A stretch of DNA of 43,691 nt from a virus. Taxonomy: Duplodnaviria; Heunggongvirae; Uroviricota; Caudoviricetes. The translations under genes were made by a program, and so were the position numbers. Positions 9,422 to 15,821 of this stretch are shown piece by piece; position 1 is the stretch's first letter, and each line of letters opens with the position of its first letter. The notes beneath the pieces are model-generated. The model was not told the DNA's origin and ran no database searches. It saw only the letters and a program-made list of their open reading frames with translations. The DNA is taken from positions 1 through 43,691 of IMG/VR virus record IMGVR_UViG_2645727945_000025; one strand, written 5' to 3'.

Positions 9422-9633
9422 GAATATCTCCTTCGTTACCGATTAATTCTTTCATCTGACGAATGAATTCTTCGTCTGACCAGTTATCTGTAAAGCTCAT
9501 TTCCTGCGATACCACGGAAGGTTGATAGCTGATTTCATCGCTTTATTTGCTTCAAGCCACATTTTGGAATCACCAATAAATCGGGCTATTACTGCTTTGT
9601 TTTGTGCAGCACGAAGCATCTGGTGATTGATGG

Positions 9634-9768
9634 CTATTTCATTGCGCATAACGCCTCCAGTTGTTTCTTTGCTGCTCTGATTAATTGTTTAACTCGGCGT
9701 GATAATTCAGATTCGTGCGGGTAGAAAGCGGACATGACGCCGCTACCCGCGAACTGAAAGTGCATCAT
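9634..9768 (-). CDS. cIII-like small protein (44 aa)
   Basis: Track ORF 9634-9873; AAGGAG RBS before internal Met36; position and sequence style match lambdoid cIII. Confidence 0.5.
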   Translation of the reverse strand: MMHFQFAGSGVMSAFYPHESELSRRVKQLIRAAKKQLEALCAMK

Positions 9769-9830
9769 GGGTAACTCCTTCTGTTTGATTGCATAACGAA
9801 AACGCCTCAATTGAAGCGTTATTGGTATGC

Positions 9831-9858
9831 ATATAAAAAGGCCCTCACACTGGAGGGC
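9831..9858 (-). terminator. Intrinsic terminator upstream of the cIII-like gene (approx.)
   Basis: Minus strand: GCCCTC-CAGTGT-GAGGGC hairpin followed by CTTTTTATAT. Confidence 0.4.
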
Positions 9859-9994
9859 AAAGAAGATTTCCAATAATCAGAACAAGTCGGCTCCTGTTTA
9901 GTTACGAGCGACATTGCTCCGTGTATTCACTCGTTGGAATGAATACACAGTGCAGTGTTTATTCTGTTGTTTATGCCAAAAATAAAGGCCACCA

Positions 9995-10195
9995 TCAGGC
10001 AGCCTTGTTATTCTGTTTACCAAGTTCTCTGGCAATCATTGCCGTAGTTCGTATTGCCCATTTATCGACATACTTCCCATCCTCCATTACAGGAAGCATT
10101 TCTTCAGGCTTAACCATGCATTCCGATTGCAGTTTGCATCCATTGCATCGCTTGAATTGTCCACACCATTGATTTTTATCAATAGTCGTAGTCAT
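9995..10195 (-). CDS. Hypothetical Cys-rich protein (66 aa)
   Basis: Track ORF; hairpin plus T-run on the minus strand follows its stop. Confidence 0.45.
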   Translation of the reverse strand: MTTTIDKNQWCGQFKRCNGCKLQSECMVKPEEMLPVMEDGKYVDKWAIRTTAMIARELGKQNNKAA

Positions 10196-10445
10196 AAGGA
10201 TAGTCCTGGTATTGCTCCATCACATCCTGCGGATGCTCTTCGAACTCTTCAAATTCTTCTTCCATATCTCACCTCAAATAAGTGGTTTGCTGCCTAATTT
10301 CATTTTCTGGCGACCAACACAAGCCACACCCATTTCACTGCGTGGCTTGCGGTAGTAAAGATTGTGCCTATCTTTTAACCACATCAGGCTCGGTGGTTCT
10401 CGTGTACCCCTACAGCGAGAAAAATAGTAAAATCCTCTCACCCCC

Positions 10446-10808
10446 TTATTTTGTCAGGGGGATATCTCCTTCAGTTCTGACCATTCGCCTTAATACTTTC
10501 CTTAAGTCGATGTAAAGTTGAAGGTCTCCATTTGCTGCGGCATCAGCCATTTTTTGCCTGACAAGCAGTAATGTTTCATACGGCTCAATAAGAATATCGT
10601 CATGAGTAATTAGGTGAAGCGTTGCCGCATCAACTATTCCTAGAGCTGCGCCAAGTATCAAAAATTCCCTGCTATTTTTGTCGCATGAGGAGATAAGCGT
10701 ATTTAGCGCATACCTAATATTCTTTATAGCTGTTGTTAATTCTGCAATTTCTTCTATGGCGTCTTCTCCAATGAGCTTTTCAAGCTCATATTTTTCTTCC
10801 TGACCCAT
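10446..10808 (-). CDS. Hypothetical AT-rich early gene (120 aa from Met24)
   Basis: Track ORF 10446-10877; GAGGT RBS before Met24; lower GC than neighbours. Confidence 0.45.
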   Translation of the reverse strand: MGQEEKYELEKLIGEDAIEEIAELTTAIKNIRYALNTLISSCDKNSREFLILGAALGIVDAATLHLITHDDILIEPYETLLLVRQKMADAAANGDLQLYIDLRKVLRRMVRTEGDIPLTK

Positions 10809-10810
10809 AA

Positions 10811-11083
10811 TTACCTCGCCGTCAGTTGTTTTGATTTCCGGTAGCCTGCCGCGTAAATGGCTACGTTTGGCAGGCAAATACTTCCACTGTATTCATCTGC
10901 CTTCTTGCAGCGAAGACTTCCGAGTGATGCTGCTTTATCTGCTCTGACGCAACCAGAGAGCTTTAGCGCAATCTTTCGCGCCAGTCGCTGTTCTTGCATT
11001 GCCTGTTCACGTTGAGCCTGTCTGCGTGCTCTGCGGTGATTTCTGGCGTTATCGTCAGCCAGATATGTAATGACTACTGTCAT
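10811..11083 (-). CDS. N: N-like transcription antiterminator (90 aa)
   Basis: Track ORF 10811-11155; start at Met25 with GGAGG RBS; arginine-rich N-terminus (NARNHRRARRQAQ) and C-terminus like P22 gp24; downstream of nutL. Confidence 0.7.
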   Translation of the reverse strand: MTVVITYLADDNARNHRRARRQAQREQAMQEQRLARKIALKLSGCVRADKAASLGSLRCKKADEYSGSICLPNVAIYAAGYRKSKQLTAR

Positions 11084-11123
11084 GTTGACCTCCGGGTAGG
11101 TGCACATCCTTGTGTGTCGATGA

Positions 11124-11243
11124 TTATTTGTTTTTGCGTTCCCACATCCAGTCATCTACTTCAGACCAGATAGTGAAACCGAAGCAGATGGCGAATGTGG
11201 TAACTAAACCACCGAGAATTGGGTTGGTCATGATGTCTAACAT
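11124..11243 (-). CDS. Possible 39-aa hydrophobic peptide between nutL and N
   Basis: ATG with GAGGAACAGAAA RBS; single predicted TM segment; below track threshold. Confidence 0.3.
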   Translation of the reverse strand: MLDIMTNPILGGLVTTFAICFGFTIWSEVDDWMWERKNK

Positions 11244-11414
11244 TTTCTGTTCCTCAGATGATTAGCTTTGGTGGTGTGGTAGGTGGGAGACCCATTTCGA
11301 CCCGCTTCGTCCGACTTCAATTCGGCAATAGTCCCGCAGGCCTCGCCGCTTTACGTGCGACATATTCCCGTCCATGAACCCTTCACCACACCCCAAAGCC
11401 AACTACTCTTTGGT

Positions 11415-11456
11415 TCCCGCATTTCGGCGGGACAATCCCATCAATGTTAAAGAGCC
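11415..11456 (-). promoter_or_regulatory. nutL (boxA-like plus boxB hairpin), approx.
   Basis: Minus-strand RNA contains GGCTCTTTA then UCCCGCCGAAAUGCGGGA, the same 18-nt boxB as nutR. Confidence 0.55.
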
Positions 11457-11503
11457 TGCCAATCTGTTCCGTTTGGCTACCAGCGTCCTGCTGATGGCTA
11501 AAG

Positions 11504-11588
11504 AATACTGTAGGTATTTTATTGTGTAAATACCCGAGGTATTTATTTTTGGTGAAATAATGATAAGCAAATGAATACAAAGGATATT
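11504..11588. promoter_or_regulatory. OL operators and PL promoter region (approx.)
   Basis: Three AATAC-N5-(G/A)TATT palindromes at about 11504-11518, 11529-11543, 11574-11588; minus-strand -35 TTTACA/-10 TATTCT overlap them. Confidence 0.5.
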
Positions 11589-11674
11589 TATTTTTTCGGT
11601 GTCTGCTTGTTCAGTGCTTTTTATGCGGGATATGTGAAGTGGATCCCGATAGCTATTGCTGCCGGGATTATGGG

Positions 11675-12043
11675 TTAGTCAGCGAAGGTTAAGACGAGAA
11701 TTACCTTAATGATGTCTGCTACAACAGACACGGCCATAGATAAACCAAAGACGATCCAAGCCATAGAGATGTCTTCACTACCATCGTATAGAGTTCCGTA
11801 ATCACTGGTGTAAGGCGTAAATGTCGCGCCTTGATACAATAGGTATAAGCTTGATCCATAGAGGATAAATGCAGATATCCCTTGTATTGCCATGATCACC
11901 AGAATCATGAAACGAGCTGATCTATGCGCCCAAGCCTGGCTTATTTTTTCTGATAGAGATTTCGCAATAAAAGCATGCGCTAAGCCGTAAATTGTTGAGA
12001 TTGCCAACATCCCCAAAAAGCTTGCTATAGCGGTTCCAACCAT
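11675..12043 (-). CDS. Predicted 3-TM membrane protein directly downstream of cI (rexB-like slot)
   Basis: Track ORF 11675-12064 abuts cI stop; ATG at 12043 with AAGGGG RBS or TTG at 12064; three hydrophobic helices. Confidence 0.55.
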   Translation of the reverse strand: MVGTAIASFLGMLAISTIYGLAHAFIAKSLSEKISQAWAHRSARFMILVIMAIQGISAFILYGSSLYLLYQGATFTPYTSDYGTLYDGSEDISMAWIVFGLSMAVSVVADIIKVILVLTFAD

Positions 12044-12060
12044 AATCGCCCCTTGCGTGA

Positions 12061-12777
12061 TCAAACCAGCCTTAGTTTTGTCTCAATTGCAACGCCTATA
12101 ATCTTGCAGTTTCCATTGATTGGCACGAGAGGCCATGCAGGATTAAGTCCCTTGAGGTATTTATTTCCGCCGTCGATTATCAGCTTCTTGAATGTTGCTT
12201 CGTTAGAGTCAGAAAGTTTTGCTATGACCAAGCTGCCGTTGATCGCCTCCCTTCCGGTATCGAAAAGAACGAATGTTCCCTCTGGAATGCTTAACCCAAC
12301 CGGTGCCGTCATTGAATCACCTTCCACTTTAAGCCAGAACGCATTACCTTGAATATGCGCGTCAGACTCAAGCCAAACATCTATGTCTTTAATGGTGTAT
12401 GGTTCGCATGCTTCACACCACGAGCCAGCCTGGATACTGCTTAACACCGGATACCTCTTTCCTGCTCTGTATTCCCCTGCATACCTTACGTTGGCATCGC
12501 TCTTAAGGCTTTCTGCCTGTTCTGCAACCTTGGCAGCAATTGACTGGCTAAAATCAGCAATTGAGACTTGCAACAATCGTGCAAAACCAGATGCAACCTC
12601 AACGTTTAGCGCGTTTCTGCCATTAAGATAATGCCCTACCGCTCCTTGGGTGATACCCAGTTCATCAGCGATTGAGTATTGGGTTATTCCCAATTCTTTC
12701 TTTTTTGACTCATACAAAGCCTTAAGACGCTTAGCGTCTTCGAGCTGTTCTGTCGTCAGTGATTTTTTATTTTCCAT
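12061..12777 (-). CDS. cI: CI repressor (HTH plus S24 LexA-like autocleavage domain), 238 aa
   Basis: Recalled similarity to lambda CI throughout (LTTEQLEDAKRLKALYE..., FWLKVEGDSMTAP..., C-terminal S24 domain). Confidence 0.9.
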   Translation of the reverse strand: MENKKSLTTEQLEDAKRLKALYESKKKELGITQYSIADELGITQGAVGHYLNGRNALNVEVASGFARLLQVSIADFSQSIAAKVAEQAESLKSDANVRYAGEYRAGKRYPVLSSIQAGSWCEACEPYTIKDIDVWLESDAHIQGNAFWLKVEGDSMTAPVGLSIPEGTFVLFDTGREAINGSLVIAKLSDSNEATFKKLIIDGGNKYLKGLNPAWPLVPINGNCKIIGVAIETKLRLV

Positions 12778-12877
12778 AGCTTAATTCTAATAGCTAAGGT
12801 ACTTAAACTAAAAATACCCTAAGTATTGATTGCTTTGAATACCTGTAGTATTCTTTGTTCATGGTTAATAACGGAGA
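12778..12877. promoter_or_regulatory. OR operators with divergent PRM and PR
   Basis: AATAC-N5-GTATT palindromes at 12813-12827 and 12837-12853; minus-strand TAGAAT 7 nt upstream of the cI ATG (leaderless-style PRM); plus-strand TTGATT...TATTCT before cro. Confidence 0.6.
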
Positions 12878-12883
12878 GTGCAT

Positions 12884-13078
12884 ATGATTCGAATGACACT
12901 TGCCGATTACGCCAAAATCCATGGACAGGCTAAAGCAGCCAGTGACTTTGGTGTAATCCAGTGCGCTATCAGCAAGGCCATTCTGGCAGGCCGTAACATC
13001 ATGGTTACGGTAAAGCCTGATGGCAGTGTGATTGGAGAGGAAGTTCGTCCTTTCCCAAGCAACAAGAAAAACAAATAG
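12884..13078 (+). CDS. cro: Cro repressor (64 aa)
   Basis: Recalled similarity to lambda Cro ([11 protein letters not shown]...FPSNKK); GGAGAG RBS. Confidence 0.85.
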
Positions 13079-13084
13079 TAACAC

Positions 13085-13128
13085 CGCTCTTTAACAGTCA
13101 TGGTCATCATTCCCGCCGAAATGCGGGA
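13085..13128 (+). promoter_or_regulatory. nutR (boxA CGCTCTTTA plus boxB hairpin)
   Basis: CGCTCTTTA at about 13085-13093; boxB TCCCGCCGAAATGCGGGA at about 13111-13128. Confidence 0.55.
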
Positions 13129-13186
13129 ATACAACGCGCATACGTTGATGCGCATAACTTCTTATTTGTTAAGGAAATACTTACAT

Positions 13187-13465
13187 ATGGAACTTACAAG
13201 TACTCGCAAGAAAGCGAATGCAATTACAAGCAACATCCTGAATCGAATTGCTGTACGTGGTCAGCGAAAGGTTGCTGATGCATTAGGGATCAATGAATCG
13301 CAAATTTCGCGATGGAAAGACAGCTTTATCCCAAAGATGGCCATGCTTCTGGCTGTACTGGAGTGGGGTGTTGAAGACGAGGAGTTGGCGGAACTGGCTA
13401 AGAAAGTAGCCAGAATGCTGACAAAAGAAAAAGCCCCGAAGAACGGCGAATTCTTCGAGGCCTGA
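13187..13465 (+). CDS. cII: CII transcriptional activator (92 aa)
   Basis: Recalled similarity to lambda CII (SQISRWK...MLLAVLEWGV); AAGGAAA RBS before the internal ATG of track ORF 13100-13465. Confidence 0.8.
   Translation: MELTSTRKKANAITSNILNRIAVRGQRKVADALGINESQISRWKDSFIPKMAMLLAVLEWGVEDEELAELAKKVARMLTKEKAPKNGEFFEA
13421..13460 (-). terminator. oop-like antisense terminator overlapping the cII 3' end (approx.)
   Basis: Minus strand: CC(T)CGAAGAA-TTCGCCG-TTCTTCG(G)GG hairpin followed by CTTTTTCTTTTG; CATAAT -10-like element about 65 nt upstream. Confidence 0.4.
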
Positions 13466-13499
13466 TGTAGAAAGACTGGATCAATCCACAGGAGTAATT

Positions 13500-14144
13500 A
13501 TGACATACGAAAATGACAAATTCCAGGTTCTGAAGAGCATGAAGGTGCCAGATGATTTTAAATCAAATGGCTTTGTTTATGTGCTTTCGAATGAGTGCAT
13601 GCCAGGAATTTATAAGATTGGGATGACTAAGCATTCACCAGAAGTTAGGGCTAAAGAAATTTCAGCCTCTACTGGCGTTCCTAAGCCATTTAAGGTGATA
13701 GCAGCCTTTCATTCAAATAATCCCGCATCAGATGAAAAACTCATTCATAAAGCCTTTGCAAAAGAGAGGCTTAGTGATAATCGAGAGTTTTTCAAGCTTG
13801 AAGATAATGATCTTTCTGAATCTCTAAATGAAATAAGGGCGCTGGTTGGCCCTGAAAGAAATGGCGAGACGGCAGAATACGCAATTTACGACTCATTCAT
13901 TTCTTTTCGCCATGAAAATGAGCTTGATCTTAATGAGGAGCTTATAGAGCAAGGTCTGGGTAGTGTAGTTGGTCATCTTCCTGCGGTGAAAAATTTCCTT
14001 ATTCGCGCCGGAATTGCTTACGCGAAGCAACTGATAAGCAAATATAACTCATCGATAGTTATTAATACAGATGGCAGTGTGGTGATGGTTAAGTCTCTTG
14101 AAGCCCAATGCTTTGATGCGGAGGTTGGAAATGAGCCTGGCTGA
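13500..14144 (+). CDS. T5orf172/GIY-YIG-superfamily domain protein (214 aa), moron between cII and O
   Basis: N-terminal motif GFVYVLSN...GIYKIGMT...R...F.V...E.LIHKAF...REFF; strong AGGAG RBS; AT-rich. Confidence 0.6.
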   Translation: MTYENDKFQVLKSMKVPDDFKSNGFVYVLSNECMPGIYKIGMTKHSPEVRAKEISASTGVPKPFKVIAAFHSNNPASDEKLIHKAFAKERLSDNREFFKLEDNDLSESLNEIRALVGPERNGETAEYAIYDSFISFRHENELDLNEELIEQGLGSVVGHLPAVKNFLIRAGIAYAKQLISKYNSSIVINTDGSVVMVKSLEAQCFDAEVGNEPG

Positions 14145-14973
14145 AGTATTTTACCTGCCGAAGAGTGAACCTGTTGAACAGGAGCGAAGAGTGGCTGATA
14201 TCGATGATGGTTACACCAGATTCGCTAACGAGCTGCTGGAAGCTATCGCAAGTGCCGATTTAACCGCTCGCCAGTTGAAAGTTATGCTGGCCTACGTCCG
14301 GAAAACATATGGATTCAATAAGAAAACAGATCGAATAGCCGATGAGCAAATTGCTCAGTTAACAGGACTGTCAAGGCAGAATGTTAACAAGGCTAAAAAA
14401 GAACTGATTTCAATGAATTGCCTGTTTATGGATGGAAATCAAATCGGTGTAAACAGTGAGGTATCTGCGTGGCAATTCAGCAAGTGTCTCCAAGTTAGCA
14501 ACTTTGTCTCGAAGTTAGAGACAAAAAATGTCTCCAAATTAGAGACACTCAATGTCTCGAAGTTAGAGACACACAAAAGACATTCTTTAAAGACAAAAGA
14601 AAATATTAATAACCCCCCTATATCCCCCAAAAAAGTTTCTCAGAAGTTCGACCCGCTAGAAACAGAGTTGCCTGATTGGTTATCAGCAGAAACATGGTTG
14701 TCGTGGGTTACCTATCGCAAGGAGATAGGTAAGTCGATCAAGTCTAAGCAAAGTGTCACTCAGGCTATCAACGTTCTAAGCAGAAGTCTGGAGAAGGGAT
14801 ATACACCTGAAGAAATTATAAACCAGAGCATCGCCAGTGGTTGGCAGGGGATTTTTGAGCCCAAGACTTCAAAGGGGAAATCTCAACCGAGGCCGCAGCA
14901 TCGAGCTATGCAGGAAAACTTTGCCACCAAAGATTACGGACAAACTGAAATGCCTTCATGGGCGCAGGAGTGA
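14131..14973 (+). CDS. O: Replication initiator O (lambda O-like N-terminus)
   Basis: N-terminal similarity to lambda O (DDGY.R..N.LLEA...ADLT.RQ.KV.LA..RKTYG.NK..DRI); ori iterons inside the gene; start at Met12 (alternative 14098). Confidence 0.8.
   Translation: MSLAEVFYLPKSEPVEQERRVADIDDGYTRFANELLEAIASADLTARQLKVMLAYVRKTYGFNKKTDRIADEQIAQLTGLSRQNVNKAKKELISMNCLFMDGNQIGVNSEVSAWQFSKCLQVSNFVSKLETKNVSKLETLNVSKLETHKRHSLKTKENINNPPISPKKVSQKFDPLETELPDWLSAETWLSWVTYRKEIGKSIKSKQSVTQAINVLSRSLEKGYTPEEIINQSIASGWQGIFEPKTSKGKSQPRPQHRAMQENFATKDYGQTEMPSWAQE
14484..14615. repeat. Origin of replication: four ~19-bp iterons (TGTCTC-N7-GAGACA) plus AT-rich tract
   Basis: Tandem copies at about 14484-14502, 14504-14523, 14528-14548, 14550-14572, then an A/T-rich stretch. 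Confidence 0.65.
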
Positions 14974-14975
14974 AC

Positions 14976-15821
14976 ATGACGCTGGATGAAAAGATCTTCC
15001 AACTGGAGAAAAAACTTGCAGAATTGAGTTCTCCGCCAATTGCTATCGAGCATACAGCTGTAGAAATTGGCACTGGCATCTGTGAAAAACATGGTGAGTT
15101 TGAGCAGCGTAACCGTTACTCGACTGGGCCAATTAAGTTTGCCTCAAGACCTAGCGAATGCCCGGAATGCATGAGAGATGAGCTTATTCGGCTACAGGCA
15201 GAGAAGATTAAAATCGACGAGGAATCACGTAAGCGCAATGTCGAGTTTCTGTTGAATAATCTTGATATTCCTGAACGATTCAAGGGTTGCACACTACAGA
15301 ACTACGAGCCAGTCAACGACGATGCAAAGAGAGTGCTCAGGGTGTGTCAGGCATACGCCAGCAAATGGCCTGAGAGGTTACAGAAAGGCGGTGGGCTGGT
15401 TATGTGTGGAAAGCCTGGTACTGGAAAGAATCATCTTGCACTGGCTATCGCCTGGCACGCAATTACGGAACATCAAAGCTCAGCTATTTTCACAACGGCG
15501 CTGAAAATTGCCAGAGAATATAAATCAACATGGTCGAAAAACTCCACCCGCACTGAGGATGAAGTGATCCGACAGTTCACTAAACCTGACCTGCTAATTA
15601 TCGATGAGGTTGGTGTGCAGTTTGGAAGCGAGGCGGAAAAGATGATCATGTTCGAAATCATCAACACCCGCTACGAGCGTATGAAGCCAACAATCCTGAT
15701 TAGCAACCAGAGCAAAGATGAACTGTCTGCATTCATTGGTGAGCGTGTTATTGACAGGATGAATGATGGCGGCGGATGCACCCTTGCGTTTACATGGGAT
15801 AGTTACAGGAGCAGATCGTGA
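14976..15821 (+). CDS. DnaC-like helicase loader (IstB-type AAA+ ATPase)
   Basis: Walker A GKPGTGKNHLA and Walker B LLIIDEVG; GGAG RBS; follows O. Confidence 0.8.
   Translation: MTLDEKIFQLEKKLAELSSPPIAIEHTAVEIGTGICEKHGEFEQRNRYSTGPIKFASRPSECPECMRDELIRLQAEKIKIDEESRKRNVEFLLNNLDIPERFKGCTLQNYEPVNDDAKRVLRVCQAYASKWPERLQKGGGLVMCGKPGTGKNHLALAIAWHAITEHQSSAIFTTALKIAREYKSTWSKNSTRTEDEVIRQFTKPDLLIIDEVGVQFGSEAEKMIMFEIINTRYERMKPTILISNQSKDELSAFIGERVIDRMNDGGGCTLAFTWDSYRSRS

Follow-up and report, generated by a model that had tools for sequence, protein, structure and literature searches.

HK620-type nutL and nutR sites and their probable cognate N protein in a P22-like podovirus

The stretch of viral DNA analyzed here (Caudoviricetes; IMG/VR record IMGVR_UViG_2645727945_000025, positions 1 to 43,691, hereafter the window) carries two copies of one 18-nt inverted repeat, one in the leader of the leftward early transcript and the other downstream of cro, each with a boxA-like element before it and with a gene of the N antitermination family lying downstream of the first. 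These are very probably functional N-utilization sites, nutL and nutR, acting with the N protein of the window in an early-antitermination module of the lambdoid type known from phage HK620. The sequence-only reading had already proposed nut sites with a cognate N, and their position and orientation, the boxA-boxB layout, the N gene downstream and the co-occurrence of boxB with the arginine-rich motif of N all support it. The nut/N module is an ordinary, widespread and already annotated one, and the nut sites are not new, because the HK620 record (GenBank AF335538, 2001) marks the same sequences, labeling the two blocks “nutL; putative N-utilization leftward” and “nutR; putative N-utilization rightward”.

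Anatomy of the nut sites

The boxB 18-mer (UCCCGCCGAAAUGCGGGA / TCCCGCCGAAATGCGGGA) occurs in two exact copies, as had been claimed, and nowhere else in the window even when up to three mismatches are allowed, and every coordinate given in the earlier reading proved correct; the chance expectation is 0.02, and two or more matches arose in 0 of 100 shuffles. The boxA core (GCTCTTTAACA) is likewise found only twice, at 11455-11445 (-) and 13086-13096 (+), each copy sharing the strand of the boxB that it shortly precedes and reading in the sense of the early transcript, with a spacer of 12 nt in nutL and 14 nt in nutR. Both boxAs are of the rrn-like GCUCUUUAACA type, and P22, HK629 and lambda have the same or similar motifs. 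Folding of the 18-mer as RNA, the check that had been suggested for it, gives a hairpin at -9.7 kcal/mol (z = -2.9) whose 6-bp stem closes a 6-nt loop, and in nutR the stem lengthens to 8 bp (AUUCCCGC/GCGGGAAU, 13109-13130).

The two sites occupy the places expected of them, nutL (11456-11415) between the leftward promoter PL and N, and nutR (13085-13128) between cro and cII, in an early region where the promoters and operators (PL/OL, PR/OR), cro, cI and cII follow the lambda order. Over its 2.7 kb this region has 98.6% identity with phage HK620, and HK630, HK140, mEpX2 and several Stx phages are also similar to it, the remainder of the window being that of a P22-like podovirus. HK620 (AF335538; Clark et al., 2001) shares the orders PL-nutL-N and PR-cro-nutR-cII; its boxA-spacer-boxB block at nutL is identical in 42 of 42 positions, and that at nutR differs by one spacer base (gtcatggtcAtcat vs. 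gtcatggtcCtcat). The two phages differ in that the hkaP/tL1 segment of HK620 is missing from the window and in that N residue 16 is Arg in HK620 and His in the window.

The lambda, P22 and phi21 N systems supply the homology on which a mechanism can be outlined. In the RNA made from either promoter, PL or PR, a single-stranded boxA, (G/C)GCUCUUUAACA, would offer a NusB/NusE site, and 12-14 nt further on would come the boxB hairpin UCCCGC-C-GAAA-U-GCGGGA, to be bound by the arginine-rich helix near the start of N (residues ~12-28, NARN(R/H)RRARRQAQREQA). NusA, NusG and the remainder of N would then travel with RNA polymerase and allow it to read through downstream terminators: on the left, the terminator-like hairpins beyond N, and on the right, the tR1 region and what follows it. 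Beyond N, the PL transcript contains three intrinsic-terminator-like hairpins, two of which (9858-9841 and 9820-9801) correspond to HK620 tL2A and tL2B, and all three are likely targets of antitermination.

Since the TCCCGC/GCGGGA arms form a perfect palindrome in the DNA around a 6-bp centre, the repeats might instead be operator-like sites for a dimeric protein. We regard this as extremely improbable: the HK620 homologue has its real operators, OL1-3 and OR1-3, annotated at other positions, the asymmetric CGAAAT centre and the upstream boxA follow the sense of both divergent transcripts, and the layout matches that of the lambda, P22 and phi21-type nut sites. A second alternative takes the hairpins, which are stable and GC-rich and stand in leader or intercistronic RNA, for terminators, attenuators, or elements of RNA processing or stability that work independently of N, a view to which the U-rich tail of a second hairpin after nutR lends something. 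However, no U-tract follows either boxB, the terminator scan called neither of them, RNase III needs a stem of more than 6 bp, and the same 18-mer stands in two unrelated contexts, in each following a boxA at 12-14 nt and changing along with the N motif, so that a role apart from N seems very unlikely.

Co-inheritance of boxB and the arginine-rich motif of N

The N-like protein noticed in the earlier reading belongs to the N family by its Pfam match, is 96% identical to the N of HK620, and has its arginine-rich motif at about residues 12-28 (NARNHRRARRQAQREQA). The nut sites of related phages, with which a comparison had been proposed, follow this motif rather than the remainder of N. Beginning at residue 34, the N of HK629 is the same as that of the window, but its N-terminus (KGTAKSRYKARRAELIAERR) is of the phi21 type, as are the boxBs of its two nut sites (CUCAACCUAACCGUUGAG, UCACCUCUAACAGGGUGA); conversely, the N of mEpX2 shares its first 30 residues with that of the window and continues into another body, and the boxB is of the HK620 type in both nut sites. 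Thus, in these natural exchanges the class of the hairpin changes together with the RNA-binding end of the protein, which also argues against the repeats being binding sites in the DNA.

In some 180 related loci, the HK620-type boxB always goes with the same arginine-rich motif (NARNRRRARR), as two surveys show. In the forward direction, 80 viral-contig loci were fetched by the conserved C-terminus of N, and wherever a boxA-anchored hairpin was detectable those with the NARNRRRARR-type motif all had the HK620-type boxB, at nutL and nutR alike, the phi21-type N-termini going with CUAACC boxBs. In the reverse direction, the pattern boxA-N13-boxB retrieved 118 copies of nutL; 111 of them had enough downstream sequence, and all 111 precede an N that shares the motif core (NARNRRRARR in most, TAKNRRRERR in one divergent copy), with at least five N bodies represented, of 86/87, 90, 91 (one copy), 99/100 and 101 amino acids, the 99-residue bodies ending in ...RSEMGVTCVGRQKMKLGSKPLI and the 90-residue bodies in ...CLPNVAIYAAGYRKSKQLTAR. 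The P22-type N genes (those of P22, 933W and the Escherichia coli prophages L085 and L086) go with GACAA boxBs.

In loci selected on the N protein alone, with boxA as the sole anchor, none of the 18 boxB positions varied in 71 nutL and 69 nutR copies; the same copies vary at five spacer positions of nutR, in the loop of the downstream hairpin and in the outer flanks. The cro 3′ end next to the nutR block is of at least four kinds, and the distances between nutL and nutR fall into classes of ~1154, 1231, 1696 and 1740 bp.

Several points weigh against this reading. The copies are closely related (in most, N is at least 93% identical) and show no compensatory changes in the stem, so that the invariance of boxB is weak evidence for a structure, and N, nutL and nutR are inherited together partly through linkage, because immunity swaps fall between the nut sites. 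The annotation of the sites in HK620 is itself only putative, no experimental, biochemical, genetic or structural work on the HK620-type N/boxB pair was found in the accessible literature, a permissive Rfam scan of positions 9500-15000 returned matches at chance level only and none at the nut sites, and the loop fold suggested in the next section rests on analogy. The linkage is broken only by HK629, mEpX2 and the cases with multiple N bodies, and in view of both kinship and linkage, the swaps within N itself are the strongest evidence.

The boxB loop and the question of a fourth N-boxB class

The loop, CGAAAU, had been described as unusual. It does differ from the pentaloops of lambda and of P22 nutL, but it is less unusual than was noted because it is preceded by the hexaloop of phi21 and by the stem and flanks of P22 nutR. 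In phi21, boxB has a solved CUAACC hexaloop (PDB 1NYB; Cilley and Williamson, 2003, as described in PMC12550061), in which the UAAC core takes up a GNRA-like fold with a non-canonical C-C pair at its flank, and in the solved P22 complex (PDB 1A4T) the C of the GACAA pentaloop is extruded (PMC12550061). By analogy, the best interpretation of the window loop is a GAAA tetraloop of the canonical GNRA kind, with a flanking C.U mismatch and with no extruded base.

Placed beside the phi21, P22 and lambda systems, the hairpin resembles each without belonging to the sequence class of any of them. With phi21 it shares an 18-nt length, a 6-bp stem, a 6-nt loop with a pyrimidine-pyrimidine flank and a 4-nt GNRA-like core (C-UAAC-C vs. 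C-GAAA-U in the window), as well as the boxA GCUCUUUAACA, homologous spacers and an N body that, from residue 34, is common to phi21-type N proteins such as that of HK629; it departs from phi21 in its core (GAAA, not UAAC), in the sequence of the stem and in the N motif (window type NARNRRRARRQAQREQA vs. phi21 type TAKSRYKARRAELIAERR), with no mixed pairing in the loci examined. The P22 genome offers at nutR the boxB ACCGC-C-GACAA-C-GCGGU, to be compared with CCGC-C-GAAA-U-GCGG in the window, so that the CCGC/GCGG stem, the loop start C-GA and the pyrimidine flanks are alike, as are the boxA (CGCUCUUUA) and the type of N C-terminus (...AAG(Y/H)RKSKQ(L/I)TAR); P22, however, has a GACAA pentaloop core and a 3′ flanking C, where the window has GAAA, with no extra base, and a 3′ flanking U. 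To lambda, the window is similar in overall mechanism, in gene order, in the motif core (TRRRERR vs. NRRRARR) and in the boxC-like CUUUGGGGUGUG after nutL, and dissimilar in that lambda has a boxB pentaloop (GAAAA/GAAGA) and the boxA CGCUCUUA vs. the rrn-like CUCUUUAACA of the window. There is no 5-nt loop of the lambda/P22 class, the 4-nt GAAA core standing between C and U, and the architecture is that of phi21 with another loop sequence and another motif.

The lambda boxB has a 5-bp stem and a pentaloop from which the fourth base is extruded, with Trp18 of N stacked on the loop, and the extruded base has been linked to the engagement of NusA. The arginine-rich motifs of the lambda, P22, phi21-type and 933W N proteins align in register with that of the window (A-x-x-R-R-x-x-R-R), the aligned segments being NARNRRRARR in the HK620 type, AQTRRRERR in lambda, NAKTRRHERR in P22 and TAKSRYKARR in the phi21 type, and Ala28 of the window N aligns with Trp18 of lambda. 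The His16 of the window N lies within the motif (NARN-H-RRARR; codon 11036-11038, -) and aligns with Arg6 of lambda N; this position is Arg in ~180 other copies and Ser in one.

It might be that these are true nut sites that constitute no separate class, the HK620-type N and the N of P22 (or lambda) recognizing the boxBs of one another. The stem and the C-GA..A loop of P22 nutR and the common register of the motifs speak for cross-recognition. Against it must be set that no natural mixed pair was seen: all 111 HK620-type nutL copies go with their own type of motif, and GACAA boxBs stand in the loci with a P22-type N (P22, 933W, L085 and L086), a pattern expected from selection for matched pairs, though linkage could also give it. 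On balance, cross-recognition seems to us unlikely, although not negligibly so. On the other hand, it is possible, though we would stop short of calling it probable, that the HK620-type motif and boxB make up a fourth and functionally orthogonal N-boxB class, whose RNA would reduce the fold to its minimum, a C.U mismatch closing a true GAAA tetraloop from which no base is extruded. If so, the antitermination complex might assemble with different host-factor needs, and the pair would be a new orthogonal peptide-RNA tethering pair. As pairings, in any case, the natural domain swaps document a fourth one beside those of lambda, P22 and phi21, and the HK620-type N/boxB could serve as an orthogonal RNA-peptide tether.

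The HK620-type nutL is present in 497 of 5,426 complete E. coli genomes (~9%), at 527 places in all, and yet in all of the E. coli records listed the nut-site annotation is “none”; annotation pipelines leave these sites unmarked. A verbatim search of the literature for the boxB sequence gave no match, a PDB sequence search with N found no relative, and NCBIfam offers no name for N or for the 39-residue peptide described below.

The N gene, its leader and neighboring features

The features of the early region are collected in Table 1, for which the HK620 features were transferred by alignment at 98.8% identity (window coordinate = L001 coordinate + 9423).

Table 1. Features of the early region of the window, with the evidence for each.
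Feature	Coordinates	Strand	Evidence and remarks
Intrinsic-terminator-like hairpins downstream of N, PL transcript (three)	10006-9985, 9858-9841, 9820-9801	-	Terminator scan
Remnant of an ancestral phi21/lambda-like N C-terminus (..YYRKPRSEMGVACVGRQKMKLGSKPLI)	10277..10366	-	tblastn with a 99-amino-acid N relative
N antitermination protein, 90 amino acids; GGAGG ribosome-binding site	10811..11083	-	Pfam PF25694 N_peptide, E = 1e-14; phrog_271
Gene for 39-amino-acid single-pass membrane peptide (MLDIMTNPILGGLVTTFAICFGFTIWSEVDDWMWERKNK); ribosome-binding site GAGGAAcagaaaAUG (GAGGAA)	11124..11243	-	phrog_7482, E = 8e-25, no assigned function
N-leader segment	11259..11398	-	~96% identical to 933W-type N leader; HK620 does not have the segment
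Hairpin CCAAAG..CUUUGG and boxC-like CUUUGGGGUGUGGUG, 3′ of nutL boxB	11384..11413	-	Matches lambda and 933W nutL
nutL boxB, UCCCGC-CGAAAU-GCGGGA	11415..11432	-	Repeat search and folding; invariant in 71 nutL copies
nutL boxA, GGCUCUUUAACA	11445..11456	-	Inside annotated HK620 nutL; invariant in 71 related loci, in a comparison anchored on the GCUCUUUAACA core
PL/OL	~11495-11566		HK620 annotation transfer
PL promoter, TTTACA-17-TATTCT, ~40 nt upstream of nutL boxA	11502..11530	-	Promoter scan; coincides with HK620 pL/OL1
cI (S24/HTH repressor by Pfam)	12061-12777		HK620 annotation transfer
PR/OR	~12788-12861		HK620 annotation transfer
cro, ending 6 nt before nutR boxA	12884..13078	+	Pfam Cro, E = 4e-26; HK620 annotation
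nutR boxA, CGCUCUUUAACA	13085..13096	+	Inside annotated HK620 nutR
nutR boxB, 18-mer identical to that of nutL	13111..13128	+	Repeat search and folding; invariant in 69 nutR copies
Second hairpin, GCGCAU-ACGUUG-AUGCGC, and U-rich tail, directly after nutR	13136..13153	+	Folding, natural variants
cII	13187-13465		HK620 annotation transfer; Pfam CII

The N gene appears to be a chimera, in which a module of ~525 bp was inserted into an ancestral phi21/lambda-like N, and the module appears to carry an alternative C-terminus of H-19B/P22 type, together with hkaQ (phrog_7374). The C-terminus of the window N (CLPNVAIYAAGYRKSKQLTAR) is of that type, and in a tblastn search with a 99-residue relative, residues 1-64 match the N gene and residues 70-99 match the remnant at 83% identity. 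The remnant (..YYRKPRSEMGV.CVGRQK.KLGSKPLI) sits downstream of an hkaQ-like open reading frame, and the region 10446-10895 is also involved.

The distance from the nutL boxB to the ATG of N is 331 nt, as the sequence-only reading had estimated (~330 nt), and the gap between N and nutL is 286 bp in the window vs. 62 bp in HK620, the insert consisting of the 933W-like leader segment and the 39-residue gene. The open reading frame for this peptide had been flagged as no more than possible; on the evidence of its sequence, it is a real, conserved gene for a small membrane protein and enters N leaders as a cassette, because it has a ribosome-binding site, matches phrog_7482 and is found in the same slot before P22-type N genes. 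That slot is occupied in HK620-type loci (L019, L034) as well as in loci with a P22-type N (L085, L086), with conservative substitutions, and copies ~85% identical, lying between nutL and a P22-type N, encode MLEIITNPILGGAIITFAIGIGFTIWSEVDDWMWERKNK. The interval 11084-11270 does not occur in the phage collection and is present in 31 of the 5,426 E. coli genomes, in which it is never annotated, PGAP never calling the gene.

More generally, the N leader is a hot spot for insertion, because in loci otherwise nearly identical (L005-L167) it measures anything between 107 and 561 nt from boxB to the start codon of N. It takes small insertions such as the unannotated membrane-peptide gene, which would be expected to be expressed ahead of N. 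In a check of the 194-561-nt leader inserts of related loci for protein-coding genes, only the phrog_7482 open reading frame recurred with a convincing ribosome-binding site. The leader of E. coli AR_0058 (L085 1969-2050, -) contains a tRNA-like gene (tRNA-Pro tgg by ARAGORN, tRNA-OTHER by PGAP).

Each boxB is followed by further structure. After nutL, the CCAAAG..CUUUGG hairpin is succeeded by the boxC-like GGGGUGUGGUG, which matches lambda (CAAAGCAGAAGGCUUUGGGGUGUGUG) and 933W, and the hairpin reads CCAAAC..GUUUGG in P22 and L085, a compensatory change. By its likeness to that of lambda, we take the element 3′ of the nutL boxB to be a probable boxC. After nutR, the variants of the second hairpin (GCGCAUCAGUUGGUGCGU) stay paired through G.U pairs that are possible only on the rightward RNA, and the hairpin is a candidate for a structure of the tR1 region, HK620 tR1 being annotated immediately after nutR.

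In the RNAfold prediction for nutR, boxA (13087-13096) pairs with the Shine-Dalgarno region of cII (13166-13175, UGUUAAGGA), enclosing boxB and the second hairpin (minimum free energy -28.2 kcal/mol, z = -3.5); this could be a coincidental complementarity between boxA and the Shine-Dalgarno sequence. Structures that sequester boxA have reportedly been described for H-19B. A pairing of this kind at nutL (GCUCUUU/AAAGAGU) was present in one minimum-free-energy structure and disappeared in a longer fold (z ~0), and it is not claimed here.

Two neighboring open reading frames complete the region. One of 214 amino acids, with a T5orf172/MUG113 (GIY-YIG-like) domain, lies at 13500-14144 (+) between cII and the O replication gene, in the slot that hkaW occupies in HK620, and the similarity to HK620 stops at 13505. 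The other is an hkaS-like, strongly hydrophobic frame of 122 amino acids at 11675-12043 (-), between cI and PL/OL (phrog_6534, no assigned function), and occupies the slot of lambda rexAB.

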